The position numbers and the translations under genes are program-made. A stretch of 63,969 nt of DNA, counting the filler, from Chrysochromulina tobinii (taxonomy: Eukaryota), in the NCBI GenBank assembly GCA_001275005.1. It is 8 parts of 8 records of this genome, joined end to end, with 100 filler letters (N's around TTAATTAATTAA, not from the genome) between each part and the next. Parts side by side here need not be neighbours in the genome. Positions count along the whole stretch, not along the records: positions 38,816 to 50,870 come from JWZX01000448.1; 7 more parts are not named here. One strand, written 5' to 3'. Shown piece by piece: positions 22,700 to 59,882 of this stretch. The notes below the pieces were generated by a model that was given only the letters and a program-made list of their open reading frames with translations, was not told the origin of the DNA and did no database searches. Position 1 is the first letter of the stretch; each line of letters opens with the position of its first letter.

Positions 22700-22789
22700 A
22701 ACAACCTCGTTTTTTCCTCAGTTCGCCTAGCGAGGCCTCTCCCACGCCCACCCGCTTGCTGGACTTGCAGTCGAGGCCGCTCGACGCAA

Positions 22790-25668: not shown

Positions 25669-25939
25669 TTAGCATGGTGCAATTTGGCGACCTCGAGATT
25701 AGAGGGGCGGTTGTGGTCGTTCCAGTCCATCTCAGTACGCGCGGGTCGTACGGGGCGCTTTAAGAAAAGTTCGTCTTGAGTCGTAGGGCTTTACGTTAGG
25801 GACTCAAAATCATCGTCGCCCTACGATACCGCCGCTAGGCCTAGGGCTTACAGGGCCTACAGTACACCACAGCCAACCTAACGTAACAGTACGCGCGGCT
25901 AAATTTAACGCCACCGCGTACCGCGGTGAAGATGTCGCC

Positions 25940-27376
25940 CTAGGACCTCCTCGACTGCGTAATGCCACGAGCACAGCAATGCACGTGCAGGCTCGTCGTG
26001 TCGTCCCAACTCATCCGTATGCGCACCGTGTGTATGAAGCGAAGCCGGCAACGAGCGGCACGAGCCGTAGCAGCGGACGTAGCAGAGGACGTGGCAGCGG
26101 ACGAGGGCGAGGTGACTTCGCCAGACACGGCGGTGCCTGCTAGAGCACCCGTTTCGTCGCCGCTCTCCGGGGGTGGTTCGAGCAGCTGTCGCAGCGAACC
26201 CACACAGCGCAGGCGGGGCAGCCGGCCGAGTGCCGCGACGAGCGCCGTATTGAGCGCATCCGAGAAGCACAGGTTGGACAGATAGGCAAAGGTGGCATTG
26301 GCAGGGAGCATGCCCGGGCGTGTCGCGTCGCCTTCACGCAGCTCCACCCGCGCCGCCTCCGCATCGCTCAGTACGCCCGCTGCTCTTGCAGCTGTGAGTG
26401 CGCTCTGGGCGGCCGCTGCCCGCGTCGGGACCACCTCCACTCCCACAGCATAGGCTGGGGAGAGGAGGGCGACAGAGGCGACCACCTTTCCCACACCACT
26501 CCCTATGTCGACGAAGGTGTCTGACGACGTGAGCCATGGGCCCAGATGGTAGCTAGGTCGCTTGGGTGGCGCTTCGGCCGCAATGTCCGCTTGGTGCAGC
26601 GCGCTGAGCAGTCCAATCACGCCATCCACAGTGATCTCTCCATATGTCAGAGGGGAATAGCGGGCCGCGCCTCCAGCGCTAGACGTCGCGCCGCCACCGT
26701 CCTCAGCGTGCGCCACCACGGAGCCCTCCTCGACCAGCGGCGCATGTGGCGCGTACCCGCTGTGGCTGGATGCCGCCCACGCGTGCCGGAGCAGCCGCTC
26801 GAGACGGCGCGGTCGCGGGTCGTTGAACGGGGCCTTGGAACAAAGGGCGGGCGTGTCGAAGAGGCCGTCGACCTGGCAGCGAAGCGGCGCGACCGCCTCG
26901 CCGTACCGCACGACCGACGCCTGCCGCGGGAGCCAAGAGGGCCGGGCGAAACGCGGCGCGCTCTCGAGGCGCACGAGGCGCGCATGCGAAGCCTCCGGGT
27001 CGCTGCAGTAATGAAAGATTCGGAGCACATATGGAGCCCTGCCACCGCACGCATTCCAGCTGCGGCTCACATAGTGCATGGGCTGTGCGACGAGACGGAC
27101 GCTCTCGAGCCCGACCGCCATCCAAGTGGGAGTGTCGTCGTCGGCCGCGCCCAGCAGGGCGTCGAGTTCGGTGCTGTGCCGAGCGTGGGGATCCTCTGCG
27201 GCCTCATCGGGGATCCACAACGCTGAGCCATTGTGAGGGCACACGGTGAAGCGCCCATAAGAGTCGCACGGAGTTTGAGCCGCTGCGGCATACGCGGTTC
27301 GTTGCCAGTTCGCAGCCACGTTGATGCCGCGCCGGAACTGCGAGAGTGCCGAGCTCACGTCGGGCGTGAATTCCAT
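25940..27376 (-). CDS. DOT1-like class I SAM-dependent methyltransferase
   Basis: TYGEIT, FVDIGSGVGKVV, GVEVVPTR, GDAT, YLSNLCF. Confidence 0.8.
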   Translation of the reverse strand: MEFTPDVSSALSQFRRGINVAANWQRTAYAAAAQTPCDSYGRFTVCPHNGSALWIPDEAAEDPHARHSTELDALLGAADDDTPTWMAVGLESVRLVAQPMHYVSRSWNACGGRAPYVLRIFHYCSDPEASHARLVRLESAPRFARPSWLPRQASVVRYGEAVAPLRCQVDGLFDTPALCSKAPFNDPRPRRLERLLRHAWAASSHSGYAPHAPLVEEGSVVAHAEDGGGATSSAGGAARYSPLTYGEITVDGVIGLLSALHQADIAAEAPPKRPSYHLGPWLTSSDTFVDIGSGVGKVVASVALLSPAYAVGVEVVPTRAAAAQSALTAARAAGVLSDAEAARVELREGDATRPGMLPANATFAYLSNLCFSDALNTALVAALGRLPRLRCVGSLRQLLEPPPESGDETGALAGTAVSGEVTSPSSAATSSATSAATARAARCRLRFIHTVRIRMSWDDTTSLHVHCCARGITQSRRS

Positions 27377-28038
27377 GGAGCATCAGCATGTTTCGCACAC
27401 GTACCTCCCGAGACTCTAGGATTAGGCGTGAACACCAGCTGTGAACAGTTGTCCCGGTGTCCTTAAGCAATCCGCACAATGAGTTTCACACGACACACAA
27501 AAAGTGCACGCATCCGGCCAATAGCCGAGAAATACGCCGCAGCACGCGACGGCACACACCATGCGGCACACCTCCAATACGTTCGTCGTCGAGACGGTCC
27601 GCCGACGCTCTCTTTCGGCAGTCCCGACCCGTCAGTCCTCGCCTCACCGGACCCAGACCCCGCACACACATCCTGTTCAGCTGTGCACAGTGGAACCACC
27701 ACCGCGCACACACCCAGCCTCTTCTTTTGCACATTCATGTGTTTGCCCTTCGTCTGCAGCCCCACCATGTCACCACTCACCAGCCATCCGCTCATACGTG
27801 ACACACGCGCAATGGTGGCACCTTGCCCACCTGCCAAGGTCACTGCCATGGTAGAGGATTCTGCCGCCACATCAGACCTCGATGGAACCCCTGACGTGCC
27901 TACGGTCACGGCAGTGCCTGCCTACGGGCACGCTCTGGACCTCTGAGATGACCACTCATCCCTGCACTCATCGCACATTGCAGGCCGCAACCTCGTCGCT
28001 GCTCAGTTAACAACTTCGGCGGCAGGAGAGGGCCCTGC

Positions 28039-30472
28039 TTAAAAGAGCAGCTGGCGCGCCTTGTCCTTGTCGGAGGAGAACGTCAGGTGGTCGATGACGC
28101 ACTGCTTGTTGCCGACCACTTTATATCTCATCGCCTCGATGATACGCATCTTGTCCGACGAGTGCGGCGTGCAGTTGAGCACCTCGACCAAGGCCTCGGC
28201 TGGCAAGTTGCCCTGGCAGTGGCGCCCGAAGAGCTCAGCAGCCGACACGATGTCCGATGAGAATGTGAGGCCTTTGAAGACGAGGTGGATGTTGCGGAAG
28301 TCGGTGATGTGAGGGCACATGCACTCGATCATCCCCATCTTGGTCGACGAGTGGGGAGACGCCTCCATAGCGCCTGCCAGAGCCGCGCAGTGGTTGTGGC
28401 GCATGTTCCGTGACATAATCTCGGCGGCCCTTCTCATGTCACTGTCGTGAGTCAGTGCCTTAAAGACTGCAACGAACTCCCGGTCGTCGAGGTGCCAGCT
28501 GCCAGTGAAAAACTCTTCGATGAGCTTGATCTTGTCCGACGAGTGCGGCGTGGCGTTCATGCGCATGATCAAATCCTTGCCACCGCGCGGCTGGTGGCCT
28601 ACAGGGGAACCGCCAGCCACGCCGTGCTGCGCCATTGCCTGCTGCGCCATCGCCTGCTGCGCCATCGCCTGCTGCGTCGCCGAGTCAGCGGAGTTAGCCG
28701 CCATCCCCGCCACCGCCACCATCCCCAGCGCCGCTGCCATCGCCACCGCCGCGACCACCCCCGATCCCGTCATCGCTCCCATCGCAGGGATCCCCATCGG
28801 GGGGCTCAGGTGGTGGCTTGGCAAGCAGCTCGGCTGTTGCTCCTCTGCGATGAGAAGACCCGCGCGAAGCGAGATGTGCGCATGCCACGCGAGTACCGTC
28901 AGCCGCACAAGGCGGGCCCTCACCTCTGTCGGAAGGCGCAGGTGTGCTTGGCGCGTCGAGTCATTTGGGTTCAGGCCCGTGGCGAGGCCTGCGCTCACTT
29001 CCCGCCACGCCACGCCGTTGTCCGAGACTTCGACGCGCAGCATCTGCACAAGCTGATCGGTGCAAGAGTGGCCACGTGTCATGACGACGATGCCGATGAG
29101 GCGCACCACATTGCCTGCATCGATGACCATCCATTCGCCGACGCGGCTCTGCCCCGCGCTCCAAGCCTGCTGTGAGTCGAGCATCGAGCGGGCGTGGCCT
29201 TGACCTCTTGCATCGCCATCCCACACCGATGAGTACTGCCGCGCCTCCTCTGGCGGGTTGAGGACGCGCTCGATGCTTGGCAGCTGGCTCGGCGGATGGC
29301 TCGGATAGACGCCGCCGCCCGTGGGCTGAAGCAGGACCTCGTGCGGCGCGAATCGTGCAACGGGCATCCGTTGATTCGCGCCGCTCTGGTCGTACGAGAT
29401 GTAGACGTACTTCTGACCCGTCTTCGAGCCGTCGTGCTCCATCTCGTGCGTGACGGACTCGACTTTCGCGAACTTCCCCTCGTCAAACTTGACGATGCAC
29501 GGACCGACGCCTTCAGGTGTGACCACCTTGGAGGCGTCGTCGCACGAGAGCCCGAAGAAGTTGCCCTCGTATCCGTGCTCGATGTGGTGTGGGTGGAAGG
29601 CTGTGACAACCAGCTCGACGGGCGCAAGCGGCACGAGTACGTCCGCCGTGGGGGTCCATGGCGGAAGCCCCGCTGGCGGAAGCCTTGCTGGCGGAAGCCC
29701 CACGGAGATGGGCGCTGAACCGAGCGCATCGGCTCGTGGCGCTGAGGTGGGGGCGGCAGCTGAGGACGCGCCTTCACTCCCCAAGCTAGAGTCATACGGC
29801 CCCCGACTCTCCCAGCTGAGGTCATATGCCCCCCCCGGAGCCATATATGGCACAAGTTTCAGCGTCGGCACAGGTGGCTTGCCGTGGCCGTTTCGGACGA
29901 CCCAACCCGACTCGGGCGGGAAGGGTGAGTCACCGCGCGCCATGTACCGATGATGGCCGGCGTACCCGATTCCCCAGCAGCCGATGCCCGCGCGGTACCC
30001 ATGGCGGCGCGTCCAGTCTGAGTCTTGCCAGCCAATTGTGGTGCCGTGCTGGTTGCGGAAGAAGGGCTTGCCGTTGGCTTGATGGTCGTTCGGCGCGGGG
30101 TGATAGATGCCATTGCACACGCCCAAGCCAGCACCCTCCACGACGACGGTGCTGAGGTCTGCGCCGTCGTCGTGTGCAGCTGCGAGCGACAAGCCTTTCA
30201 CTGCCTCTGCTAGCGCCGCAGTCTGCGCTGCAGTCTGCGCACGAGTCTGCGCAGCCTCGTCGGCGACCCTCTGCATTTGGCGGCTGGACTTCATCTGGCG
30301 CCAGCGGTCGAGCGGAGAGGAGTTGATCCCGGGCATCACGCGCGCCTCGACGCGCCCGTTACGAATGACCGCGTCGACCACCTGACCGAACACGTGGACC
30401 GGATCATCGTCCTCGTCGTCCTCCCGCAGCTCGCGCGCTGTGCCATCCTCCTTGCCCGAGGGGACGAGGTAC
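28039..30472 (-). CDS. Terminal exon of a protein with an F5/8 type C (discoidin) domain and C-terminal DUF4476-like helical repeats, 5'-partial
   Basis: YSSVW..HARSMLDSQQAWSA...EWMVID...ARLVRL.VLAWH.HISLRAGL; repeated (H/F)SSDK motifs; family-B acceptor at 30473. Confidence 0.78.
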
Positions 30473-30631
30473 CTGATGAGGGAGACCATCAAGAGGTCAT
30501 CAGAGGTAATCTGCGGCAAACACAGAGGCGANNNNNNNNNNNNNNNNNNNNNNNNNNNNNNNNNNNNNNNNNNNNTTAATTAATTAANNNNNNNNNNNNN
30601 NNNNNNNNNNNNNNNNNNNNNNNNNNNNNNN

Positions 30632-33430
30632 GGCCGATGTGGCGGCCAATGGCCCGGCGTCCGCCGCGCCTACATCCCGTCCCGATGGTATCGATCCGCA
30701 ACCGGTCGTTGGCGCACCGCCGGTGGCATTGCCGGCCGCCGCCGCGTCTGCCTCGTCCCTCAGTGCTGCCTCTTGCAGCGCCTCGTTCCAAAAGGAGGAT
30801 GCGCTGACGAACCCGACGAACCCGACGACCGCGGAGGCTCTGTTGGCTGACGTCGAGGCGTTCTTGCAAGAGGGCACCTCGAGTGCGCTCAGAACGGCGC
30901 CCGTGTGCACGAGCCCAGCGGCTCCAGCGGCTCCAGCGGCGGCTCCAGCGGCTCGGGGATGGAGCCGTCCGCTAGCGGCGGCTCCGTCAGGGACAACACC
31001 GCAGCCACAGCCGTCACGGCTCGCGCCGCGCAACCTGTCCGCCATCCTCGGACTTGCTCCCGAGGAGGCGGCGGCCATCGCCAGCGCGCCAGGAGCAAGT
31101 GCTCACTACAGCGCGCCGTCCCGTCCGCAAGTGATCCACTCGCCACCGCGCTGTAGTGAGCACTCGCCTCCGCGCTGTAGTGAGCACGTGCCCCATCCGC
31201 AAGTGATCCCGTCGTCGCCGCCTCGCGCCGCCGCTGCGCCCGCCTCGGCGGCCTCTCGTGGGCGCGTGGTGGCGGGCGCGTGGGAGCGGCGGCGGCAGGA
31301 GCTCGAGGAGCTGGGGCGCCTACAAGGAGCGTCCCTCGAGCGACAGCCGCACGACCTTCACTTTGAGCACCAGCCGCCGCCGCACCAGCCGCAGCCGCAG
31401 CAGCTCGAGGAGCAGCTGCTGGGACTGCACCAGCAGCAGCAGCTGGAGCTAGAGCTCCAACAGCAGCAGCAGCGCCAGCAGCTCCAGCAGCAGCAGCTGC
31501 AGCAGCTGCTCCAGCTCCAGCAGCAGCCCCAGAAGATCCAGCAGCGCGAGCAGCTCGCCCTCCAGCAGCTCCAGCAACGGCAACGGCAGCAGCTGGAGCA
31601 GCAGCAGCAGCGCCAGAGGCAGCAGCTGCAGCAGCAGCAGCAGCAGCAGATACAGCAGTTGCAGGCCGAGTTCCAGCAGCTGCAGCAGATCCAGATGCCG
31701 ACGTCGCTGCTCGGACCCTCGCTCGTCACTTCGAGCAGGTGGAGCGCCCGTCCCGGCGCTCCGTGGGGGAATTCCGTCCGCGACCCTCCCTTTCCGACGA
31801 CAGCCTATGACAGGCCCCGCGACGCCGGCATGGGCTCGACGGTCGGTGCCCACCACGGCGCCTCGATGGGCTCGACGACCGGTGCCCACCACGGCGCGAT
31901 GGGCAGCGGCAGCTCGTCGGCGATGGATCGACGCGATCTCGGCGATCTGCCCAGGGCCGTGACGGGGCCGTTACTCTCTCCTCGTCGCCAGATGGAGGCG
32001 CAATGGGAGCCCTCGACAGCCGAGGTTGCGTCGTCGTGGAGCAAGGGGCTGCGTCCCGCCATCTCGCATCCGGGGCAGACGGCGTTCACCGCCGCTGCAC
32101 GGCCGACGGACTCTCCCTCTCGTTCGCGCGCCATCACCAAGTCGCTGGACGCCTCGCTCGCCACCTCCCTCAACGCCTCTCTCAACCCGTCCCTGCACGC
32201 TTCCCTCTTCCCCTCCATCAAACCTTTGCTCAACGCCTCCCTGGACGCCTCGCTCGCCGCCGCTTCCCTCGTCGCCTCAGTCGACCCCTCGTTCCATCAA
32301 ACCTCACTCAACGCCTCCCTCAACGGTGATCTCAACGGCTCCCTCGCCGCCTCCCACGGCACCGGCTCTTCTCTCGAGGCGTCGGCTGTGAACGTGAACG
32401 AGGCGTCGCCGTGGGCGTCCCCTCGCACCTCGCATCCATCGGAGCCGTCGGCTGTGAACGTGAACGTGGCGTCGCCGTGGGCATCCCCTCGCACCGCGCA
32501 TCCATCGGAGCCATCCAAAGACAAAGGACCGTGGCCGTGGACTGCGAGTCGGGGTCCCGACCCGCGCTCGCCTCTCCCCCCGAGCGGCCTCACACCCCAC
32601 CCCGCCCCCACACAAGCTCTCCCCTCCGCGAGCCAACTGCTCGCGCTCCATGCCGCCCAGTACAGTGCTATTTCGCCACCCTCTCTATTCGATCCCATCC
32701 CCCCTGTCATGCATCCGCGCGCGCCGCCACCGGCGGCACCGCCGGCGCCGTCAGCACACCCGCCGCACTACCTTGCCTCAACGGTCGTCGCTGTGGGCGC
32801 CGCAGCCGCCCCTGCCACCCTGCCGCCGTCACTCCCGCCGGCGAGCGCCGTGCCGAGCGCCGCGCCGAGCGCCGGCGACGTGTCGGAGCGCAGCCAGCTT
32901 GCGGCCGCCTTCCTCTCGATGCCGCATCGCTGCATGCTGCACCTCGCGCCCGAGACGGCGCCCATCCCCATCACTGTCGCTCTCGTCACCGTAGCCGGCG
33001 GCGGAAGTGCCGGCGCTGCGGGGCATGCTGCTCCCCCGGCCGCCGCCACGCCTGCCACATCGTGCAGTGCCATGCGAAAGGGCGGCGGCGGCGGCGCGGC
33101 GGTATTGGGGCATGGGGGTGGCCTGCCTCGTGGGCTTCGCTTGGCCAGCGCATCGGCGGTAGGCTCGCCGCCTCGCTCGCCACCGCCGCCGCTGCCGCCG
33201 CCGCCACCTCCGCCACCACCTCCTCCACCACCCCCTGCAGCACTCGCGCTCATGTGGACACGGCGCGCCGCGGATGCCCAAGACGACGCGACGAGCCTCG
33301 CGACGAGGTTGGGCATGAGCACAGGCACGATCGAGCTCTCGAGCATCGCGGGGCTGTGGCCCGAGGGGAGCCGCGTGCACTTGCTCGTGCGAGAGGCGGC
33401 GTCGCTCGTGCCGCAGCAGCAGCCGCAGCC

Positions 33431-38815: not shown

Positions 38816-41800
38816 CGGCGGCGGCGCACGCGCGGGTGTCGGACGCGCCACCCACGACGGCGCGAGCGCGCCCGACAATACGTGGTTGCTCAACACGGCC
38901 TTCGACGGCGACGACTCGTCGCTGCAAGTGCATGCGAATCCAAAGGCGGAGACGGGCTGTCAGGGGATCTTTTACCACCCGGCGATTGCGCACTATGGCG
39001 TGGTGGCCCCCGGGCAGGCCGACCTTGGCTACTACAAGGAGGTCAAACAGGCCGCCCTGGTCTTCTCGCGGTACGTGGCGGGGGTCGCAGCCGAGCTGGG
39101 CAAAAAGTACTCGTCGCGCCCGTGGCCTCGGGCCGAGAAGGACGATCGACGGTTCCATCGCATCTCCCTCGGCTCGTGCAAGGTCGACTCGACGCGCAAG
39201 GACTATGACAAGCGGATGGGCGCGGCGGTCGAGGTGGCCGAGTGGCTGTATGAGCTTATCGGGCACGTGGAGTCGTTCACCAAAACGGCGCTCGAGGACG
39301 GCAGCGCGACGACGACGGCCGTCACATCCACCACCGAGCCGGCAGAATTGTCGTCGGCAACGGCGCTCGTGCCCGCGGGCTCGCTCGACGTGGCCGACAC
39401 GGTGCCCGTCGCGCACATCGAGTCCATTGGCGACCTCAAGCAGGCGCAGGTGGTCGTGGCGGTGGCCGAGCTTCGGACCGGATACGAGGAGGTGAAGAAG
39501 AAAGGCAAGCTCAAGGATGACAAGGAGAAGAAGGAGAAGAAGATGAAGCCGGTGGTGCTCAACGACTATTGCGATCCGATCCTGAAGCTCGTCCCAGGCG
39601 AGCTCGTCGAGGTTCGTCAAAAGGACAATACCGGCTTCGATGGCGCGTGGTACATGGCCACGATCAAGGAAGTGCTCCCCAAGGGCACCGTGCGCGTGCA
39701 GTACACGAGCGAGCGTGTGGGCGCCCAGCCGGGCGCACGTGCGCCGGCGGCCGCCGCGTCGTCGTCGTCGGCGCCGATGGAGGTCGAGGGCGGCGAGGAA
39801 GATGTGAAGCGGCTGTGGAAAGGGACCGAAGAGGACGTCAAGATCTCCAACATACGTCCCGTGCCACCCGTGCTGACCGGAGAGAACGGGGCACCTCTCG
39901 AGCTCATCCCAGGTACGTTAATTGACGTTGATTGCCACTGTGGACCTGCCTTGCATGCAAGTGCTCACCACAGCGCCCTCGCCCCTCTCGGCTCCTCGCA
40001 GAGCATGCGAGCTCATTAGGGAACTGCGAGGCGGGTGACACCCTCGAGATGCACTACCTGGGCGGCTGGTGGCAGGTCGTCATGATTGTCAACCCGGTGC
40101 TGCAGGAGAAGCCCGCAGCTGCGTCCGCGGGCGCTCAGGACGGCGCGTCCGCGGGCGATGCCGAGGGCGCGCTCAGTACGGCGGCGGATGGCGCAGTCTT
40201 GGCGGCCGAAGGCGCGGCGGGCGGCGCGGAGGGCAAGCCTGGCGACAGGCGCAAGTCACTCTCGAAGGAGGAGAGGTATGAACGTCCGATGCCGCCGCTC
40301 GAGCTGCTCCGGAATGCAAAGTTCGCCGTCAAGGCGCTCAAATTCGTCAATGAGCACGACGAGGTGCCTGCCGCGGCGCTGCGTCCTCTCTGGGTGTGGA
40401 AGCGCAAGGGTGGCAACCAGCTGACGAAGCAGGGCAAGAAGAAGCAGTCCATGGGAGGCGCTCAGGACGGCGCTCATGAGGGCGCTCACGAGGACGGCGG
40501 CGCTCCGGGCGCGCAGGACGGCGCGCACGACGGCGCTCAGGACGGCGCGCAGGACGGCGCGCACGATGGCGCTCACGACGGCGCGGCCGAGGGCAGCGGC
40601 GACCTGAAAGAGGGTGACGTGCTCGTTGGCATGTGGGGCAAGTCGCGCGGGCGTGAGGGCAAGAACTTTTTCAAGGGCGGCGTGCCGGCCTTTGTGCCTA
40701 CGCTGCGCATGGGCGAGGCGAAGGCGGTGACGCTCACCCTCAAAGAGGCGATGCTGCTGCAGGAGCAGGCGCTGATGGCGGCGCAGCAGGAGGCGCTCGC
40801 TCAGCTCGGCGCCGCCGGCTATCGCGAGTCGGTGGTCCAGGGGGAGATGGTCGAGGTGCGCGCCGGCCTCGAGTTCGGCGAAGAGTTCGAGTCCTCCCGC
40901 TGGCTGGTCAAGATTCTGCAGTGCGACCCCATCAACCGACGGTGCGAGATCGAGTACGTGGACTTTGATGACGAGGAGACTCCCGGCAAGAAGCTCACCG
41001 ATTGGGTCGATTATTGGGCGGTGCGCCCGATACCCCCGAAGGGCGTGCAATTCGGTCTGAAGACGGCCTGGCTTCGCAAGCTCACGCCGGGCTCTTGCGT
41101 CGAGGTGCTCTACGCTCTCGAAGACCCTGATGAGCCAAAGGCCGAGAGTGCGGACGACCAGGGGGGCAAGGGCTGGTGGGACGCGGACTTGATCGGCATC
41201 TATTCCGAAGAGGTGATGACCACTGATGACCAATGACTTGATCGGCATCTATTCCGAAGAGGTGATGACCACTGATGACCAATGATGACCACTGATGACC
41301 ACTGATGACCACTGATGACCACTGATGACCACTGATGGCCACTGATGACCACTGATGGCCACTGATGGTCACTGATGACCACTGATTGTGCGGGCGCTCG
41401 CTCGAGTACTGCAGGGCAATGAGGAGCCACCCGACGCGCCACCGGGCCAGTTTGCTCCGGGCACCAAGCGGCAAGGCGGCGACGGTCGCACATGGGTCGT
41501 CAAGGAGAAGGGGCAGGCGACGATCTGGTACCCCGAAGGCGTTAAGGATTGGAAGCCTAAAAAGGCAGGTGACGATGGGGTCGTGTACCGGCTCAAGATC
41601 GTGCCGCATGGCACGCTGCTCACAGTGAGCGCGGCCGAATGCATGGCCAAGATGCGGCCGTGGTGGCTCTTTGACCGTTTCGGGTACGCGTTTGGGGCCA
41701 ACGGCTGGGAGCCCACCTTCTCTCGCAAGCAGGCGAATGCGCACAACCGGGACGCTGAGAGTGAGGAGAAGCGCCTCGCGTTCAAGATTGGCGAGATTCG

Positions 41801-44260
41801 AGCCCAGGCGAGCGCGGGTCCGCCGCTCAAGGAGCTGATCGTCGAGGGGATGGCCGTCGAGGCGACGCAGTTTGAGGAGGGGCTGCTTGGCTCGTGGTTC
41901 TCGGGAGAGGTGGCTCAGGTGCGAGCTCTGATGACCTCTGATTGCCTACTTGGCTCGTGGTTCTCGGCTCCAAGGCGCTCATCAAACTGATGACCTTTGA
42001 TCAGCTCTGATGACCTCTGATTGCCTCCCTCATCAGGTGCGCCACCACGCCAAGCATGGCTCCAAGGCGCAAATCAAGTACCACGATCTGGCGGAGGAGG
42101 GCGGCAAAGGATCGCTCACCGAGTGGGTGCAACTTACCCAACTGCGCCCGCTGCCGCCGCCGCCGCCGCCGCCACGCGAGGGCCATGCGTCGTGGTTGGA
42201 TGAGTACTCAGCCGAGGATGAGTTTGCGAACACTCTCGAGCTACGGCACGGCGACGGCTGGTGGACGGTGACGCTCCGGAGCAAGGAGGTGCTCAAGGGC
42301 ACCACGTACTATCACGTGCGCTACCTGGGCGGCGGGCAGGACCACCGGGTGCTCGAGACGGCGCTCCGCCCGTTTTGGACATGGTGTCATCGCTTTCCCG
42401 GTGGCTGGCTCCGCGGCGCGCCCGCGCTCGATTCGGAGGAGGCGAAGGCGGCGCAGGTCATCCCGCTGCAGCCGGGCCAACCGCCCTATGCGGCGTCGCT
42501 GTTTGAGATTGGGTATGCGCGCATCGGGCTGACGAACCACAATGGCCTCTTGATGGCCTCTGAGTGCCTCTTGAGTGCCTCTTGATTGATGGCCTCTTGA
42601 TGGCCTCCCTCATTAGGTATGCGCGCATCGGACGCGACTCGACGCCGTACGAGGTGAAGCTCGGCGAGTGGGGGGGGCTTCTGTGGCAGCCAGCGGCCAT
42701 CATGGCGCCCAAGAGCCTCGCGTCCAAGAAGCCCAAGTCGGGCGCGGAGCTCGAAGGAGGGTACATTGAGGTGCACTGGCCGCTCGACAACGCGTGGTAC
42801 ATGGCGAGCGTGATCATGTACATGCCCGACGTGCAGAAGCACAAGATTCGGTATGCTGATGGACGGCGACCGGCCAGGTGCATGCATGTGCTCACCACGG
42901 CGCCCCCTCGCGTTTCCCCACAGGTACGTGGTGGACGGCGTGATCGAGATGCTTGATCTCGAGGTTGAGGAGTGGCGCGGTCCGGTCGCCGGCCCGAATG
43001 GCGAGCCTCCGCTCGCCGTGCCCGTCCACCACGTCTCTACCGCCGCCGTCGACTTGCCTAAAAAGGAGCGCAAGTCGGGTGGCGCACCCAAAAAGGAAGT
43101 CCTCGATGGCGCCGGCTACAGCGGCTTCAAGCTGCGCATGCGCCTCGACCATCGGCATAAGGAGGCCTTGCTCTACGATGCGGACGGCAATCTCGTCGTG
43201 CCGCCCGAGTACGAGCAGGGCAGCGCACCGGCCGCGGGCGGCGGCGCGCGCGCCTCGCTGGAGCCTCAGCTGACGCGCGAGCCCCCCGGCGTGTGGCCCG
43301 AGGTGATGACCTCTTGATGCCCTCTTGATGGCCTCTGATCACCTCTTGATCACCTCTATCACCTCCGATCACCTCTGATCACCTCTGATGACCTCCGATC
43401 ACCTCTGATGGAGCCATTGATTGCCTCCCTCATCAGGTGGTCCAGGATCAGCTGATCGAATACTCGCCCCTCGAACCGAGCGGTGCTGGCTCGTGGCGGC
43501 TGGGCATCGTGACCGGTTTCAAGAAGAAGAAGGGCAAGAGGAAGAGCGAGGTGGACGGATGGAAGGATCAGCTCGTGCGCATCTCGCCGCTGCCCCTGAT
43601 GGCCTCTTGCTGGCCTCTTGATGATCACTGAGGACGTCTGATGGCCTCCCTCATCATCAGGTGCGCATCTTGCCGCTGCCCGAACCGTTACGGGTGCCGC
43701 AGCTCGCGGCTGAGCTCGCGTCTGTTCGGGGTACTCCAAATGAGGACGCGTACGAGGTGGTGGTGCCACCTGGCTTTGTACGTGCCGTGCCGCCCGCGCC
43801 GCCGATCGGGTGGCTGGATGCCTTGCCTGAAGGGGCGACGCTCGAAGTGCGACATGCGGGTGGCTGGTTTGGAGCGGTGGCGCTCTCGCGGCGTGGAGTA
43901 GCGAGCGCGCGACGCTCGACAGTCAAGTTTGTCCTCGAGCCGAGCCCCGGCTCCGCGTTGCCGCTGCTCGGGGGAGGGCAGATTGAACGCACTGCCGGCG
44001 TGGACGACTTACGACCGTTTTGGTTGCACCAGGGCAAGCGGGATGGGTACCGGATGGGGCACGACACGTCGATTGACATCGACCAAGCGGTCCCCACAGA
44101 GGAGGTGATCTCGGCGCTCGAGATCAAGGCCGCCCTCGACAATGCCATCAACGCTGCCGCCTCTACAGAGTACATGGCCGCCACCGCTGCAGCTGCCGCC
44201 GCCGGGGCTTCCGAACCTGGTGGCGCCGACACGGCGCGTGGCGCCGGTAGTAGCAGTAGC

Positions 44261-44291
<31 letters not shown>

Positions 44292-44401
44292 GCGGCGGCG
44301 GCGGCGGCAGCGCAGCAGCTACGGCGACTGCTGAGGCGGCGGGCGCTGTGGCGGGCGCTGGCCGACGTCGCGGAATAGGCGACGTCGATGTGGAGGCAAA
44401 C
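38816..44401 (+). CDS. Multi-exon Agenet/Tudor-repeat protein, partial (exons to 39912, 40002-41212, 41415-41918, 42037-42512, 42617-42850, 42924-43302, 43437-43574, 43661-44401)
   Basis: Repeated G..VEV...GF.GAWY.A.I...V.Y......IRP.PP Agenet motifs and IEVHWPLDNAWY Tudor motif; all seven GT-AG introns keep the frame when spliced. Confidence 0.85.
41213..41414 (+). repeat. Intron filled with (TGATGACCAC)n, family B variant
   Basis: GT at 41213, CAG ending 41414, more than 10 copies of the 10-mer. Confidence 0.9.
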
Positions 44402-44607
44402 GTGAGGACCATGATAGCCTCTTGATGGCCTCTGATGGCCTCTGATGACCTCTGATGACCTCTGATGACCTCTGATGACCTCTGATGACCTCTGATGACC
44501 TCTGATGACGCCCTTGATTGCTTCCCTCATCAGGCGAGCTGCACAGGAGGCGGCCACTGATGACCTCTGATGACCTCTGATGACCTCTTGATTGCTCCCC
44601 TCATCAG
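41919..44607 (+). mobile_element. Family-B introner-like introns: 41919-42036, 42513-42616, 43303-43436, 43575-43660, 44402-44533 and an acceptor at 44607; also 45659-45742 (-) and 30473-30531 (-, truncated)
   Basis: Shared (CTGATG[A/G]CCT)n body and conserved 3' end TGAT[T/G]GCCTCCCTCATCAG across unrelated genes and contigs. Confidence 0.8.
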
Positions 44608-45159
44608 GCGAAGCGCGACGAGGAGGTGGGCCGGCTGCGCACGCAGCTGAAGCAGATCCGCGACATGCTCAAGGAGAGCCATAAGGTCCTCAAGCACCTG
44701 ATGAGCCAGGAGACGCAGCTCAAAGCGGAGCTCAAGGAGGCGCGGCGCTCGACACAGCGCGCCGACGGGCTCAACCTCGAGTACCTCAAGAACGTCGTGC
44801 TCGCGTTCTTGCTCAAGGTATACGGCGACGCGGACAACGAGGAGCACATCAAGCTCGCGCACGTGCTCGAGACGATCCTGCACTTCTCGCCTGAGGAGAA
44901 GGCGCAGGTGCGCGACAAGATCACGTACTACGAGTCCTCATGGTGGCATAGCACAGCCAATCTGCTCAAAGCGCAGACGGCCGCCGACGTGAGCGAGCGC
45001 GTCGTCGCGAGCGCACCGTCGACCGCCCCCCCTGCCGCCGAGTCGCGCGCGAGCGGTGCGAGCGCCTCCGGCACGGCTACCGGCGCCTTGCCCGCCGCCG
45101 CAGCTCCCGCAGCGTCGAGTGGGGTCTTTGGCAGCCTGTGGGGAACTCTCTTCGGCTGA
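44608..45159 (+). CDS. Terminal exon encoding coiled coil + GRIP domain (golgin-like)
   Basis: NLEYLKNVVLAFL...KLAHVLETILHFSPEEKAQV is the GRIP consensus. Confidence 0.85.
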   Translation, partial: AKRDEEVGRLRTQLKQIRDMLKESHKVLKHLMSQETQLKAELKEARRSTQRADGLNLEYLKNVVLAFLLKVYGDADNEEHIKLAHVLETILHFSPEEKAQVRDKITYYESSWWHSTANLLKAQTAADVSERVVASAPSTAPPAAESRASGASASGTATGALPAAAAPAASSGVFGSLWGTLFG

Positions 45160-45526
45160 ACGCGCATCGAGCGCCGCGGCAATGTGCCGCAAAACGCACA
45201 TACATCGCATGGTCATGGAAATCCTGCGCATACGTTTACGTAGACCCTGTCTGAGTACGTCTACTTTCGCGCGTATCGGTCGCTTGTGAGATACCGTACA
45301 TTCATAAAAATAAATGAAACTTAAATGAAAACATATATACGGTCGCGTCTGGCGGCGGACCGACCTTGACCGACCTTCTTGACGAGCCTCGAGCGCTGCC
45401 CAGGGACGCTGACCACACATACGCGACCCGACTCGGTCTCGCCTCTCGCTCGTGACCCTTACTACCTCGAGGCTCTCTGCACGTCTCCGATGACTGAATC
45501 GTCGCACGAACGGCTCTGGAGTCCTC

Positions 45527-46611
45527 CTACGATCCAATCTTGCCAAATTTGGTCTCATACTCGTCCACGCGCGCCTTGGCCTCCGCCAACTGCAGACGCA
45601 GCTCGATGAGCCCGCCAAGGTCGTTGTCGTACTTGCGCTGTAGCGCCTCGAACTTGACCTGACGAGGGAAGCCATCAGCGAGGCCATCAGCGAGGCCATC
45701 AGGGAGGATCAACCAAAACGGGAGATCTTAGGGAGATCTCACCTCCAGTTTCGTCGCGTGCTGCCCGAGCTTGCGCGTCCCGCCCCCTACCCTAGAGAGC
45801 TCCTCGCGCAGCCGCTTCGCGTCCGCGCGCGCCTCGTCCCTCTCGAAGGCGTTCTGCGCCTCGGCCATCTTCGCCTCGATCAGCTTCGTCGACAACTGCT
45901 CGAGCTCGGCGCTCGAGGCGGCGCCGCCCGGACTGGCGCCGCCTCGGCCGCCGCCGCCGCCTCGAGCCTGCTCTGCCCGCTCCGCGCGGCCGATGGCGTC
46001 CTCGAGCGAGGCGCGCAGCTGCTCGATCTCCTCCTCGTACTCCGCTGCACGCTCCTCCGCCGCTGCCGTCAAGTTCTGTGCACGCTCCTCCGCTTGGGAA
46101 GCCTGGCGCGCCGTACGAGCCGCCTCGGCGCGCAGCAGCGTCAGCTCCTCCTGTGCAGAGGCTGTAGCAGCGGGCGGCGGCGGCCTGGGCGGCCACGTTG
46201 ATGGGCGGACGTGCCTCCGGCGGCACCCACCTTGCTCGCCGCCTTCTCCAAGAGCTTGCGCACCTCTCGCGCCTCGGTCTGCGCCGACGCCTTGCCCGCC
46301 TCCGCCGCGGCCAGGTTGGCCTGCATCTTGGCGAGCGCCACCGCGTGCTCGCTCTCGAGCCCCTTGAGCTGCGCGCGCAGCTTCTGGGACTCCGCGAGCT
46401 CGGCGGCCAGCTTCGTCTTGCGCTCGGCTGCGAGCTCCTTGGCGGCACGTGCCTCGTCCCCCGATCTCCTCGCCTCCTCGCGCGCATCGTCCGCGTCGGC
46501 GCTCGCTCGGCGCGCTGCCTCCCGAGCACGTGAGAGCTCCTCCGCATCGGCAGTCGCGCGCCCACCGCCACCACGCCCGGCCTCCTCCCGTGCTGTTGAG
46601 AGCTCCGCGCC

Positions 46612-46649
<38 letters not shown>

Positions 46650-47769
46650 TCTTGGCTGCCGCCGCCGGCGCCATGGCGCTCGAAGCTGTCTTCCCGAAGG
46701 GGTTAACGCTCGAGGACAGGAACTCGTCGGCGGGCGGCGGCGCGGCCTTTTCGAGGCCCTTGCGTGCGAATGGGTTGGGTTTCGCCGCCGCTGTCGCTGC
46801 CGCCGAGGAGGCGCCGCCCGACGAAACCGACGGACGCGCCGAGGAGGCGGCCGCCGAGGAGGCGGCCGCCGAAGCTGGCACGGTGGACGGCTTGGCTGGC
46901 GGCGGCGTGGGTGCGGCAAGGGCGGCGCGCCCTCCTCCGCGCACGACGCCGGCGCCGTCATCCTCCTCCTCGTCGTCGTCGTCACCAAAGTTGTGGCGCG
47001 CCGTGCGGGAGCGACCCGCAGCGCCGACGCTCATCTGCCCCGCTCCCGCGTCGTCTTCCTCCTCATCCACAGGGTCAGGCGCCGTCGGGGGCGGCGGGCG
47101 CGCCGTCTTCCGGAACCCGGACTGGGCCTGCACCAAGACTTCCGAGAAGCCCTCGAGGTCTTGCTCGAGGGCGTGCGGCTCGCCGCTTGGCGTCTCGGAG
47201 CCCTCGGGCGGCAGGCCCGAGAGGCCGGTGAGGGCGGACGAGATGGACTGGTCGTCGTCGTCGTCGTCGCCCACGCCCGGCTTTGCCGGGCGCGCCACCA
47301 TCGACAGGTGCAGCACCACCGGGTTGCCGTCATTCGCGCGCCGTTCGAGCTGGAGCGTGAGCGGTTGCGGCTGCTCGGTCGCCACGTAATCCGCAATGTT
47401 GAGCTCGAACGAGGCGATCTCCTTGAGCTGCGTCTTGGACGTGCCGAACATGGGCTTGACGGCCAGCACGGCCACCTTGTACCGCTTGTCCGAGAAGCCC
47501 GATTTCTTGCCCGTCTTGCTCGCGAACAGCGTCGCCATGAAGGAAACCTTTTGCGCGCCCCACGAGACGTCGCCGCCCACCTCCTTCATCTCGTCCGTTA
47601 GGTCGACCGCCTTTGTCGACGCCATCTTGGGCCCTCGGCTGCACTGCACCACCAGCCCGGTCGCCGACATGTTGGGCGGAAGGCCGCTCTCGACGCACAG
47701 GTCCGAGAACTCAAAGGTGAAGCGCGACGTGGCGCGGCCCGCATGCTTGGCTTTGCCGAACAAGGGCAT
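45527..47769 (-). CDS. NT-type C2 (EEIG1/EHBP1-like) domain + coiled-coil protein (exons 47769-46231, 46150-45743, 45658-45527)
   Basis: VVQCSRGPKMAST...VSW...ATLF...K.YK...LNIADY (NT-C2); NPF motifs; GT-AG introns 46151-46230 and 45659-45742 keep the frame. Confidence 0.85.
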
Positions 47770-47990
47770 CGGGGTGCGGCGCGGCGCCGGGCCGATTGCG
47801 CGGAGGGTGCGGAGCGAACCGAGCAGCAGCTTTCTGTGCCTGTGAACCACTTCTTCGAACCTTGCTGTGGGAAAAAAGTCGAACCTTTGCTGTGGGAAAA
47901 AAGTCTAGGAGAGGGGGGCTTCTATCAATCAGCAGTCAGAATTCAGTAGCGAGTAGGGTCTAGGGACCTATACGAGTACGTCCGCTCGTC

Positions 47991-48992
47991 TCATCCGTAG
48001 TAATGATCAGTCTTGCCGGTGAACTCGGAGCGGCCGAGCCAAGGCGTTTTAGGGTGGCAATAGCATCCCTCGAGTCCGGGCTTGTCGAGCATCGCAATGG
48101 CCGCGAGGTCGTCCGCGTCCAGCGTGAGGGCGAGAACGGCCTCGAGGTTGGCGGCGATGCGGGCGGGCGTAATGGACTTGGGGATGATCGCCGTCGGTCG
48201 GGTGAGCGCCCACGCGAGGAGCACCGCCTGCGCCGTCGTGTCGTGCTTGCTCGCGATCTGCCGAATCGTCGCGTCCTGCGCCAGAGGCGGTGAGGCGTGG
48301 AAGGCTGACATCGCATTCGCCGCGCCGCCCATCGACGAATGTGCAGTCACAACGATGCCGTGCTCGGTGCAGTAGTCGAGCAACGGCTGACGCTGGTAGT
48401 ATGGGTGCGTCTCGAATTGGTTGCATGCGATGGGCTTCGTCGCCACGGCCTGCACCACCTTCAGGTCCTCGATCTCAAAGTTGGAGACGCCGATGTTCTT
48501 GACGAGACCCTCATCGACGAGCTTCTCCATCGCTGTCCACGTGGCACCAAGCGGCACGTCATCGACTTGATCCGCGGAGCTCGCCTCAACGGTGCCCGGC
48601 GTGAATGCCACAGGAAAGTGGCACAGGTACATATCGAGGTACTCCACGCCCAGCGCTTGGATAGACTCGAGCACGCCCTGCCGAACCAGCTCCGGCCGGT
48701 GAAAATTGTTCCAAAGCTTCGAGGTGAGAAAGAGCTCCTCGCGCGAGGCGAGCGTGCCATCCGCAAGGGATTCTGAGATGGCTTTGCCCACTTCAGCCTC
48801 GTTCATGTAGACCCACGCCTCATCAATGTGCTTGTATCCAGTTGCCAGCGCAGCCTTGGTGCCCTCGTACACCTCTCCTTTTTTGGAAAGCCACGTGCCA
48901 TACCCGATGGCAGGCATCGCGTCGCCAGTGCCCGGTAGCTTGAGCGTTGGCGTCGTCAGCGCGGCCGTGGCCGTTGCAAGGCAGAGGAGCAT
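47991..48992 (-). CDS. Aldo-keto reductase with N-terminal signal/targeting peptide
   Basis: MPAIGYGTW, HIDEAWVY, FLTSKLW, YLCHFP (D-Y-K-H tetrad), IGVSNF, IIPKS. Confidence 0.95.
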   Translation of the reverse strand: MLLCLATATAALTTPTLKLPGTGDAMPAIGYGTWLSKKGEVYEGTKAALATGYKHIDEAWVYMNEAEVGKAISESLADGTLASREELFLTSKLWNNFHRPELVRQGVLESIQALGVEYLDMYLCHFPVAFTPGTVEASSADQVDDVPLGATWTAMEKLVDEGLVKNIGVSNFEIEDLKVVQAVATKPIACNQFETHPYYQRQPLLDYCTEHGIVVTAHSSMGGAANAMSAFHASPPLAQDATIRQIASKHDTTAQAVLLAWALTRPTAIIPKSITPARIAANLEAVLALTLDADDLAAIAMLDKPGLEGCYCHPKTPWLGRSEFTGKTDHYYG

Positions 48993-49299
48993 CGCGGCCG
49001 AATCGGGGGGACCCATGAGAGTCTCGTGCGCGTGATCTTTCTTATGCCCAAGACGGCGCTGAAGATTGCGCATGCAAGCGACGGGGAAGGGGGGGAGGGG
49101 GGGGAGGGGATTTTGTGGAAAGGTGAGTCGTGGAAAGCAGGGCTGCTGAGGAGCATGCTGAAGCGATTCTAATGCTTCAAGATCCAGGTGTCGCCACGCT
49201 CGAGGAGGGAGGAGCTCATTGACGCCATCAATTGGGACGGCCGGCTCCTCCAGCGTGTGCAAGCAGGCGGCTTCTTCCTCGCGAGCTCGTAGATGCACA

Positions 49300-50520
49300 T
49301 GCCGCTCAGCAGCCAGAACGCGGCCGGCTCAGGTGCGTCCCAGGCTCAAGGCCTCGTGGTGTGGTTGTAAAGGCAACGTGACTCCCCACACTGAAATCTG
49401 CGTCGTCGTGAGGGTGCGAGCGGTACTCCTTGCCTTTAAAGGAGTGCTTGATGTAGTTCATCCACGCGTCAGCCCCTGGGCCCGCAGTGGGCAGGGTGGG
49501 GAATATGCGTGCGACCTCGAATGCCCAGAAAGGGACCAAGAGAACTTGCGGACTTGCGCGAGGGAGAAGTACGAGAAGGAGGGCCGGCATTCTCGTAGAC
49601 GAGGGAGTCGAGAACCTCGAGAACACATCTGTTCTCGAGTATTGGCCACCCATGGCCGTCTTGGGCGCGCTCGTCACCACGCTCTGCATCCGCCGCAGAG
49701 GATGAACCACACACGGCAGCTCCTTGCTGGGCCTGTGAAGGGCCTGCCTCGTCGACCTGGATGTCCTGGACCTCCTCGTCATCAAATTCGTCATCGTCAA
49801 GGTGTCACCACCCGCCTGGCGCTTGGCACCCCAGCCACCATCAATACTGGCAAGGAACCCTGAGTGGGGCATCGAATACACCCAGTACCCAGGGTGGACA
49901 ATGTGGATGGCGTCCATCATTGTGTCCCCCTGCCGGGTAAAGTATCCGCCAAATTTGAGAAAGAGTTTGGCGGTGCCGTAGCGGTGCCGTGCCAGGGCGG
50001 AGGAGGCGGTGGTGGTTGAAGTGGTAGGAGTGGCTGCTGCGGGGGCAACAGTGCATTAGCAGCCGCTTGCACAGCGGCGGCGGCATTGGCGGCGGCGGCG
50101 GCGGCGGCGGCACCTGCGGCTCCAGCGGCGGCCATCGCGGCATCTGCACCACCTGCAGCGGCGGCGTCGGCAGGGGCAGCAACGATGGCGGCGAGGGCAG
50201 CGGCCATCGCTGCAGCTGCAACGTTCGCAGCGGCAACAGAGGCCGCTTGGAGCTGCTGGGCGTTGGCCTGGAGGGCCTGCAGCGCGGAGCTGGAGGTGGC
50301 AACGGTGCTGGAGGTGGCAGTGGCGGCGGGGGAGGAGATGGCGACGGTGGTGCTGAGGGAGGAGGCGGTGGTGATGGTGCCGGCGAATACAGAACGTCCT
50401 CTAACTCATAGTCTGAGTGGTGTCGCCAACAATTTATAGTCGCCACACACCTGCGCCACACCTGGCCTGGTGCTCGACGAGGTGCTTGATTCCGCCGATC
50501 GCAACCGTGGGCTTGTACCA
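49300..50520 (-). pseudogene. Frameshifted, degenerate coding-like remnant, possibly from a transposable element
   Basis: Ala/Pro-rich and acidic (DDDEFDDEEVQD) coding-like segments switch frames; no recognisable domain. Confidence 0.3.
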
Positions 50521-50970
50521 TTCATAGAAGTGCATCATGATCTCGCCGCGGGCCGAGCTCACTGGCGAATGTCCACACGCCCTTCAGCGCATTTATGTAA
50601 TGAAGTTCATTTTGGACCACATAACGGGACTGTGAAACTACTTCTCGCGCTTCTATCACCGAGTGGGTGTGCATGACCCCTAGAAAAGTTTTTCTTTTGT
50701 CTCACCGGACCGTACCTAACGAGGCGGGCGACCATCGGGCGGCTAGCGAACTCCCCCTTGGCAGAGGGCGGTTCGCTTGGCACCCCCCTACGAGAAGCCC
50801 CCACAAGTATAACGGCCTATACGGTCCGGGGTTCATCAGTGTGATGACACCCGGTGACCCCTTACCCCCCNNNNNNNNNNNNNNNNNNNNNNNNNNNNNN
50901 NNNNNNNNNNNNNNTTAATTAATTAANNNNNNNNNNNNNNNNNNNNNNNNNNNNNNNNNNNNNNNNNNNN

Positions 50971-59634: not shown

Positions 59635-59824
59635 NNNNNNNNNNNNNNNNNNNNNNNNNNNNNNNNNNNNNNNNNNNNTTAATTAATTAANNNNNNNNNN
59701 NNNNNNNNNNNNNNNNNNNNNNNNNNNNNNNNNNCTTACGGAAGTAAGGAAGCATGGATGCTCACGGGAGAGGACGTTAGGGTTAGGGGTCAAAAGAGGA
59801 GAATGAGAGAAGAAATGACCCTGA

Positions 59825-59882
59825 CCCTAACCCTAACCCTAACCCTAACCCTAACCCTAACCCTAACCCTAACCCTAACCCT
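59825..59882. repeat. Telomere-type (CCCTAA)9 array, interstitial or subtelomeric
   Basis: Perfect CCCTAA repeats, with degenerate CCCTCA/CCCTAA variants downstream. Confidence 0.92.

Follow-up and report, generated by a model that had tools for sequence, protein, structure and literature searches.

A multi-copy family of spliced introns in Chrysochromulina tobinii, probably made by insertion

Where new introns come from has been asked for a long time. Most known introners are DNA transposons whose duplications are short and of fixed length, and transposases generate target duplications of fixed length. Non-LTR retroposons and SINEs, which insert by target-primed reverse transcription, leave duplications of variable length, an intact 3′ end, a variable or truncated 5′ end and filler. 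Introner-like elements of classes 4 and 5 in Symbiodinium and Polarella glacialis, described in a preprint (bioRxiv 10.1101/2020.10.14.339549), are multi-copy, have a terminal 3′ splice site and inverted termini, and recruit the 5′ splice site from the target duplication. Their duplication is fixed at four bases (GHNN) and their inverted repeats are clear, which points to a DNA transposon. The surveys by Gozashti et al. (PMC9860276, PMC12130899) report introners in Emiliania huxleyi, Pavlovales sp. and marine Chrysochromulina and Prymnesium MAGs, and give 0 introner families for Chrysochromulina tobinii in the 2025 data set. In the same surveys, E. huxleyi fam24 is entered as 'Unknown, 10bp terminal direct repeats, co-opt 5' carry 3'', the family of the Chrysochromulina sp. 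MAG has 4-bp duplications and carries the 5′ site, and introners derived from non-LTR elements are reported (PMC12130899). New introns of Daphnia pulex, ascribed to repair of staggered double-strand breaks (PMC4202315), have exon-derived direct repeats of 4–12 bp and unrelated inserts.

Here we describe an intron family of C. tobinii that resembles the Symbiodinium/Polarella elements and E. huxleyi fam24 in its splice-site logic, but differs from the former in a duplication of 3–59 bases, inverted ends of 5–7 bases, a body made of an array of 10-base units and a haptophyte host. In contrast to Daphnia, the repeats reach 59 bases and the inserts form one sequence family with a fixed 3′ cassette. 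Unlike non-LTR retroposons and SINEs, the family has no A-rich tail, internal promoter or partner element in view. The surveyed Chrysochromulina sp. MAG family differs from it by description, and one of the surveyed haptophyte families may yet be identical with it in sequence. A full-text literature search turned up no account of Chrysochromulina introns built from repeats. For E. huxleyi, the genome paper is said to mention 10- to 11-base repeats in introns. The family likely represents inserted, self-copying introns of a kind that the published surveys did not list for C. tobinii.

Cassette introns of the window and their splicing

The window, the whole stretch of 63,969 nucleotides analysed here, is composed of eight contigs with N/TTAATTAATTAA spacers between them. 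It was searched with the 19-base cassette query TGATTGCCTCCCTCATCAG, up to three mismatches being tolerated, and the count was compared with 100 shuffles. Eight matches were obtained, while 0.01 were expected and the count of eight was reached in 0 of the 100 shuffles. They are located at 42018, 42598, 43418, 43639, 44515 and 44589 on the + strand and at 30473 and 45659 on the − strand, and Tandem Repeats Finder (TRF) placed arrays of period 10–12 directly 5′ of the cassettes. Together with one copy that lacks the cassette, nine family copies were counted in at least three genes. The features are as follows, with the intron ends at 42036 and 43436 corrected.

41213..41414, + strand: family intron of 202 nt, starting with GTGATGACC and holding 12.4 units of TGATGACCAC (TRF array 41263-41386, 12.4 copies)
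41186..41285, + strand: exact 49-base tandem duplication over the exon-intron border (TRF period 49, 2.0 copies, 100% match)
41919..42036, + strand: family intron of 118 nt with the exact cassette at its end; GTGCG in common with the exon start; TRF array 41987-42021
42513..42616, + strand: family intron of 104 nt; cassette variant with a TTAG end; TRF array 42542-42607
42851..42923, + strand: intron of a second family (…GCTCACCACGGCGCC…CCCCACAG), for context only; RNA joint 42849 to 42923; motif census
43303..43436, + strand: family intron of 134 nt with 10.4 units (TRF array 43304-43409, 10.4 copies), the exact cassette and a 3-base duplication (GTG)
43575..43660, + strand: family intron of 86 nt with a 21-base duplication, GTGCGCATCT(C/T)GCCGCTGCCC, at 43575 and 43661
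44402..44607, + strand: donor at 44402, TRF array 44418-44509 (9.1 copies), two cassettes with acceptors at 44533 and 44607; further TRF array 44557-44588
45659..45742, − strand: family intron of 84 nt in a neighbouring gene; 3 units of 12 bases (TRF array 45671-45707, period 12); cassette with 3 mismatches
30473..30531, − strand: 3′ part of a family intron with a cassette match, truncated at the contig end

The copy at 41213 has a different 3′ end, with the terminal letters ...GAGTACTGCAG, and the absence of the cassette there had been recognized by the sequence-only reading of this DNA. The 49-base duplication at its border consists of 27 exon and 22 intron bases, and the RNA joint places the donor in use at the first GT. 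Two internal repeats (D2 and D3) in the intron at 41919..42036 reproduce 22 bases of its upstream exon and 20 bases of its downstream exon. The intron at 42513..42616 has a 15-base duplication, GTATGCGCGCATCGG, at 42513-42527 that is repeated at 42617-42631. The acceptor of the truncated copy at 30473..30531 opens into the frame of an F5/8 type C domain on the − strand (Pfam hit 28042-30531). Tandem repeats of many kinds are abundant in the window (143 TRF rows), and a period-12 array at 32149-32355, which contains GCCTCCCTCA, was set aside as a coding repeat outside the cassette intron family.

RNA contigs joined five family introns exactly at the predicted GT and the cassette AG or intron end. 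The joints run from 41210 to 41413 for the intron 41213-41414 (X13 record 15), from 42511 to 42616 for 42513-42616 (X12, X13 and X17), from 43300 to 43435 for 43303-43436 (GT..AG, three of four runs), from 43574 to 43661 for 43575-43660 (all four runs) and from 45656 to 45741 for the − strand intron 45659-45742 (CT..AC on the + strand, three of four runs). The intron at 42851-42923, which is outside the family and has no cassette, was removed as well. At 41919-42036, RNA contigs stop at 41914 and begin at 42033, with TCAG common to both sides; a bridging RNA contig for this intron or for 44402-44607 was absent from the listed tables. Once six introns are taken out, 1251 codons are open between 39932 and 44401, and retention of any one of them brings in a stop. 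Stops in all three frames were present in all eight family intervals of the window, as the sequence-only reading had claimed. It had also proposed that introns with a repeat body and a fixed 3′ cassette exist here and that the cassette AG is the acceptor; the eight matches behind arrays of 10- to 12-base period and the RNA joints bear out both points. These sequences are real, spliced introns of the genome of the haptophyte Chrysochromulina. Unspliced contigs of the RNA library X13 (43345-43574 and 45378-45700) may represent pre-mRNA or carried-over DNA. In the DNA run, summed depth across the arrays was very high and is not usable as a copy number.

The stretch 44402-44607 behaved differently from a single intron. 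RNA contigs had loose ends at 44404, 44531 and 44605; those from 44404 run on for 254 bases or more of sequence that the window lacks, and the acceptors at 44533 and 44607 are each preceded in RNA by 23 bases that it lacks as well. The assembler has probably collapsed two introns here and lost the exon between them.

A multi-copy family with duplicated exon starts

A metagenome scan yielded at least 231 cassette copies, at least 212 of them distinct, at no fewer than 145 loci from several assemblies and lakes. The loci were chosen by the exact cassette, so the set is tilted to young copies, and some of them are one organism assembled repeatedly. A protein piece encoded at one locus is identical to a C. 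tobinii protein, and no overlap of 250 bases or more was detected between the window and these loci (at least 145). The flanks are unrelated. The many similar introns by which introners are recognized are present here as at least 212 distinct copies, in keeping with the earlier proposal of one multi-copy family in unrelated genes. No cassette match was obtained in viral contigs, and a viral origin of the family was dropped.

The copies keep to the coding strand of genes, as had been suggested. In the window, all nine listed copies are in the sense direction, six with RNA support and the rest with an open frame on the same strand. Outside the window, a classifier that was correct for 44 of 47 held-out pieces assigned coding flanks in the sense direction to 91 of 104 copies among the matches listed, with strong calls of 82 sense against 5. 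A plain minisatellite should show no preference for genes or strand, and this was not the behaviour of these 104 copies. The copies are also clustered: eight of the nine in the window lie inside 4.6 kb, and in all ten contigs of at least 30 kb with two or more loci among the matches listed, all loci lie within 7 kb.

The start of the downstream exon, 3 to 59 bases of it, is present a second time at the 5′ border of the intron, where it provides the GT donor. Among the matches listed, an exon-start repeat of at least 10 bases was detected in 98 of 208 copies versus 13 of 200 controls, for which a decoy 100 bases downstream was used; this is the insertion footprint looked for in introners. The sequence-only reading, which had missed this duplication, had proposed a mobile origin, and the duplication supports it. 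The remaining 110 of the 208 listed copies, including three window introns, have a repeat of fewer than 10 bases and may be old or formed in another way. In 42 independent simple introns among the matches listed, the duplication measured 8–59 bases (median 19), was perfect in 31, started with GT in 34 and with GC in four, and was preceded by AG in 25.

The layout can be written as exon, copied start of the downstream exon (3–59 bases, usually GT), sometimes a few unique bases, 0–11 units like CTGATKRCCT, the cassette CTGATTGCCTCCCTCATCAG and exon. The 3′ end always adjoins the duplication, whereas the 5′ side varies in the number of units (0–11 motifs) and in unique filler; the smallest inserts are 15–19 bases. 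Whole blocks of duplication plus insert were duplicated again in many loci. The cassette carries a branch-point-like CTGAT 16–17 bases 5′ of the AG, a pyrimidine run and the acceptor in actual use, and the duplicated exon start is the source of the donor. Microhomology at the junction of duplication and insert was not significant (3 of 42 versus 1.85% expected, P 0.04; all classes, P 0.37).

In sequence, the array units are variants of the cassette's first ten bases and contain the branch-point-like CTGAT. Arrays are uniform inside each intron, and their length differs between close relatives (L002 versus L004), with flanks that are 96–98% identical. From these properties the arrays may have come from the first half of the cassette by slipped copying, for which ordinary slippage in place would be enough. 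Reiterative copying of a short template, as had been suggested for the intron body, is not needed, and no template RNA or enzyme for it was found. CTGATGA, with which a unit can start, and TCATCAG, at the end of the cassette, are reverse complements and pair in predicted folds; the pair is present only in copies whose insert begins with a unit start (about 17 of 42 among the matches listed). Fold z-scores for five family introns were weak, from −0.75 to −2.28. A C/D snoRNA or a hammerhead, considered because the units contain CUGAUGA, was dropped: an Rfam search that allowed E values up to 1 returned only five hits, all below threshold and none of them a hammerhead, the best match being sR3 with 21.7 bits against a gathering score of 41, and the hits stem from the UGAUGA/CUGA letters of the units.

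Origin of the family

We favour, with somewhat better than even confidence, an introner-like family whose members were made by insertion; its putative mobility is read from footprints. The insert would supply the branch point, the pyrimidine tract and the AG, and a target-site duplication at staggered nicks would supply the donor. Spread would be by copy and paste with the 3′ end fixed and the 5′ end variable, a pattern that is retroposition-like (target-primed), and transcripts of existing family introns are a possible template. Arrays and re-duplicated blocks would grow later via slippage between repeats. Insertions would survive only in the sense direction and where the duplication opens with GT or GC, since only those are spliced out, and the stops in all frames would, by way of NMD, keep unspliced copies from doing harm. 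Duplications of such length and variability speak against a transposase; they agree with staggered nicks and either retroposition-like or repair copying. The variable duplication, the intact 3′ end and the variable 5′ end are the traits of a non-LTR retroposon or SINE.

Several observations count against insertion, among them the short repeats of 110 of the 208 listed copies and the lack of significant microhomology at the junction. Among the loci, all of which had been chosen by the cassette, no empty site was seen, and relatives differed only in array length. The 3′ end of the family is CATCAG, without an A-rich or other usual retroposon tail, and the tandem units would count as such a tail only if the element were read on the other strand. 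That copies are nearly absent between genes and in antisense is difficult to attribute to selection alone. The copies of both flanking exons inside the intron at 41919 more closely resemble the outcome of template switching during repair. In the window, the metagenome loci collected and the viral contigs, neither a master copy nor a reverse transcriptase, nuclease or transposase came to light.

A parent-child search of filler 13-mers against the other loci and the window (a sample of about 0.2 Mb) returned only family motifs, orthologues and chance words. A lariat-tail rule, in which the insert starts after the branch A at a reverse transcriptase stop, was abandoned with junctions scattered and about 10 of 42 (among the matches listed) within 2 bases of the 'A' of TGAK.

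The strongest rival, to which we give perhaps one chance in a few, needs no dedicated element. A break in a transcribed exon would be repaired by a template-switching polymerase, which copies a stretch of the flank and then part of a nearby family intron before rejoining at CAG|GT. Repair is favoured by the intron 41919-42036, in which pieces of both its flanking exons (22 and 20 bases) stand next to each other, by the 49-base duplication that crosses the exon-intron border and by the re-duplicated blocks, and the strong clustering within single genes is expected if the template must be nearby. Daphnia offers a precedent for introns with exon-derived repeats, but its inserts form no sequence family. 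Moreover, the constant layout demands three ordered template switches, junction microhomology is not enriched, and the exact AG end and the sense direction are explained by repair only via selection.

Within the insertion reading, a more specific version appears rather unlikely: the mobile unit would be the intron itself, with RNA of a family intron, as transcript or excised, copied into transcribed genes at staggered nicks. If true, it would explain the exact 3′ end, the spread confined to genes and their sense strand, the clustering in genes and the tiny size.

It is improbable that these are old, ordinary introns in which nothing moves, the branch-point motif having become a minisatellite, the cassette being a strong 3′ splice consensus of the species and local slippage being the source of the copied exon sequence. 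The uniform arrays, their shifts in length between close relatives, CTGAT within the units and the many other tandem repeats of the window agree with this. However, the match of 16–19 of 19 bases in unrelated genes exceeds a splice consensus, and the intron next to them, 42851-42923, lacks the cassette and is spliced all the same. Array growth is not expected to give perfect exon duplications of up to 59 bases exactly at the acceptor, as found in 31 of 42 copies among the matches listed, and a plain minisatellite would not keep to the sense strand of genes. Very improbable is a MITE-like introner with short inverted ends (CTGATGA...TCATCAG) that a transposase encoded at another site would move, like the introners of dinoflagellates and Aureococcus: the paired ends and the splice-site arrangement of the Symbiodinium/Polarella elements (bioRxiv 10.1101/2020.10.14.339549) speak for it, but the duplications range from 3 to 59 bases instead of having the fixed length left by transposases, the inverted ends have just 5–7 bases, and only about 17 of 42 inserts among the matches listed start at or near a unit start, the others having 9–27 unique bases.

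The family shares a splice-site trick with other introners, an acceptor that is carried and a donor from the duplicated target, but its footprints differ from theirs and point to another mode of spread. The arrays break or collapse assemblies, as at the contig end at 30531 and in the collapse at 44402-44607, and such damage may be part of the reason that the surveys list the species without introners. The host is a culturable freshwater alga with a public genome. If the intron itself were the mobile unit, spliceosomal introns would multiply by retroposition without a transposon body.

Cassette introns and their splicing in the window

The window consists of eight contigs with N and TTAATTAATTAA spacers between them, and its G+C content is about 0.65. 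The family introns are located in the piece 38816-50870, and one further copy lies at the end of the piece 22624-30531. The 19-base cassette, which forms the fixed 3' end of these introns, was matched eight times in the window with up to three mismatches, against 0.01 expected, and arrays with a period of 10-12 bases were found directly upstream of the cassettes. These results confirmed what the sequence-only reading had described, including the intron at 41213, which has the repeat units without the usual 3' end. The cassette supplies the acceptor in use; within it, a pyrimidine run follows a CTGAT that lies 16-17 bases upstream of the AG. Of the 30 copies of TGATGACC in the window, 25 fall within 41214-44578, and these are on the + strand without exception. 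The most frequent 10-mers among the units were CTGATTGCCT (112), CTGATGGCCT (77), CTGATGACCT (69) and CTGATTGCAT (50), and each of these is a variant form of the cassette's opening ten bases. Weak, sub-threshold matches to Rfam C/D box snoRNA models at 41259-41370 and 44438-44487 are explained by the letters UGAUGA and CUGA in the units.

The splicing was examined using RNA-library contigs of coded sequencing runs. On the + strand, joints were found at 41210->41413, 42511->42616 and 42849->42923, and, at 99% likeness, at 43300->43435 (three of four runs) and 43574->43661 (four of four). The joint 45656->45741 was found on the opposite strand, also at 99% likeness, in three of four runs. The exact intron borders were set by adding the shared bases at each RNA joint.

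Introns supported by an RNA joint
41213-41414, + strand, GT..AG intron
42513-42616, + strand, GT..AG intron
42851-42923, + strand, GT..AG intron
43303-43436, + strand, GT..AG intron
43575-43660, + strand, GT..AG intron
45659-45742, - strand, GT..AG intron

For 41919-42036, no joint was listed, and the RNA contigs end at 41914 and resume at 42033; these ends fit splicing, because TCAG is common to both sides. With the six + strand introns removed, the frame stayed open for 1251 codons, and retention of any one of them placed a stop in frame. Unspliced contigs were also present in run X13, and may represent pre-mRNA or DNA.

The interval 44402-44607 had been drawn as one intron. Its donor and both of its acceptors are real, but together they do not make up a single intron, and the RNA holds bases that the window lacks: from 44404 the RNA contigs continue into missing sequence of at least 254 bases, and an identical stretch of 23 bases, likewise missing, precedes both acceptors, 44533 and 44607, in RNA. 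In the simplest reading, the assembler probably collapsed two family introns via their shared array, and the intervening exon was lost.

The intron-dense host gene (39932-44401) encodes a protein with Agenet domains. It contrasts with 12983-22111 (+), an intronless open frame of 3043 codons with neither a Pfam match nor a family intron. An aldo/keto reductase of the window falls in the same 90% cluster as a C. parva protein. Near a contig end, close to the start of the piece 59735-62021, a telomere-type array, (ACCCTA) x10.8, occupies 59818-59882, and TCACCC repeats follow it at 59892 and 60002.

A second intron-linked motif, GCTCACCACGGCGCC, had 13 window matches with up to two mismatches, against 0.91 expected. 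It has the form …CCCCACAG at the intron end, lies in 42851-42923 and also at 33868, 39963, 31848 and other window sites, and is present exactly in 12 of the 145 cassette-bearing metagenome loci listed (L001, L010, L035, L142 and others). The motif probably represents another intron family of the genome.

Exon-start duplication and direction relative to genes

At its 5' end the intron carries a second copy of the first bases of the downstream exon, and the donor comes from this duplication. In the window it measures 15 bases at 42513, 21 at 43575, 5 at 41919 and 3 at 43303. A scan of metagenome contigs for the exact cassette yielded at least 145 loci, 80 of them with 600-base flanks, and at least 231 cassette copies (at least 212 distinct). 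Among the matches listed, 98 of 208 evaluable copies had an upstream repeat of the downstream sequence of 10 bases or more, and a decoy placed 100 bases further downstream gave such a repeat in 13 of 200. The order was constant at these loci: exon, exon-start copy, optional unique bases, units, cassette and exon.

After exclusion of copies inside re-duplicated blocks and of same-site duplicates (44 introns remained before the latter step), 42 independent simple introns of 37-296 bases were obtained. Their duplications were 8-59 bases long (median 19), were perfect in 31, began with GT (34 introns) or GC (4 introns), and were preceded by AG in 25. Stops in all three frames were found in 28 of the 42, as compared with 200 of 840 shuffles, and in all eight window intervals. 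Multiples of three were not depleted among the simple-intron lengths (11, 11 and 20), and no significant enrichment of junction microhomology was detected in the same 42 introns.

The direction of the introns was assessed from codon usage, by a classifier whose training set was three long window frames and which was correct for 44 of 47 held-out coding pieces. As previously proposed, all nine listed window copies follow the sense of their own gene; elsewhere, 91 of 104 clean downstream flanks were called sense, with strong calls of 82 sense against 5. Most of the 13 antisense calls were near zero on inspection, and only L048 appeared truly antisense. The L118 call comes from unrelated, AT-richer DNA that matched by chance.

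Array growth, block repeats and clustering

Within one intron the array is uniform, and loci L002 and L004, with flanks 96-98% identical, have arrays whose lengths are about 79 bases apart. Slippage in place therefore suffices to make the arrays, and a dedicated template is unneeded. The exon-start duplications support the proposal of a mobile family, whereas the "reiterative copying of a short template" attached to it was not shown.

At many loci, blocks of duplication plus insert stand in tandem, in as many as five or six copies, as expected of a segment with flanking direct repeats. Two to six whole introns follow one another head to tail at L006, L014, L022, L058, L084 and L128; L128 has three blocks, and the related L094 has one. 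The exon beside the L006 intron encodes 199 residues, 100% identical to 'bifunctional aminoacyl-tRNA synthetase [Chrysochromulina tobinii]' (NCBI). Since each repeated block begins with GT and finishes with CAG, removal would need either splicing in steps or the pairing of the first donor with the last acceptor. At 41186-41285, an exact 49-base tandem duplication crosses the exon-intron border; the RNA uses the first GT, so that the exon end in the second copy has become part of the intron.

Origin of the family and comparison with known introns

We rate the repeat-built introns as an introner-type family. Staggered nicks followed by insertion would generate the exon-start duplication, and target-primed retroposition would leave what is seen here, a 3' end that stays constant, a 5' end that varies, and filler. 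The main rival is that new copies originate by template-switching repair. It is favored by the clustering of copies, with loci spanning 7 kb or less in all ten contigs of at least 30 kb that hold two or more loci among the matches listed, and by the flanking-exon copies inside the intron 41919-42036, in which the two copies adjoin at 41946-41985, one of 22 bases from the upstream exon (95% identical) and one of 20 bases from the downstream exon (90% identical). A transposase is disfavored, because the duplication length varies from 3 to 59 bases. No source element for the proposed insertion was found in the window or the cassette-bearing metagenome loci, and no empty site was seen among the loci, all of which were chosen by their cassette.

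The introner-like elements of dinoflagellates carry the 3' site and take the 5' site from the duplication (bioRxiv 10.1101/2020.10.14.339549), the same splice-site logic as in Chrysochromulina, but their duplications are fixed at 4 bases, in contrast to 3-59 bases here, and they possess inverted repeats. New introns of Daphnia have exon-derived repeats of 4-12 bp (PMC4202315), and their inserts are mutually unrelated, whereas those of Chrysochromulina form one sequence family. Haptophyte families are present in the introner surveys (PMC9860276, PMC12130899), which list an E. huxleyi family with '10bp terminal direct repeats, co-opt 5' carry 3'' and 0 families for C. tobinii, and which describe a family from a marine Chrysochromulina MAG with 4-bp duplications and a carried 5' site; judged by these descriptions, the repeat-built family may differ from the published haptophyte ones. 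The genome paper of C. tobinii, in its available text, gives an average of one intron per gene and nothing further on introns. The repeat-built family would be a variant within the introner type, with a wide spread of duplication lengths and an insert built from units and a cassette.
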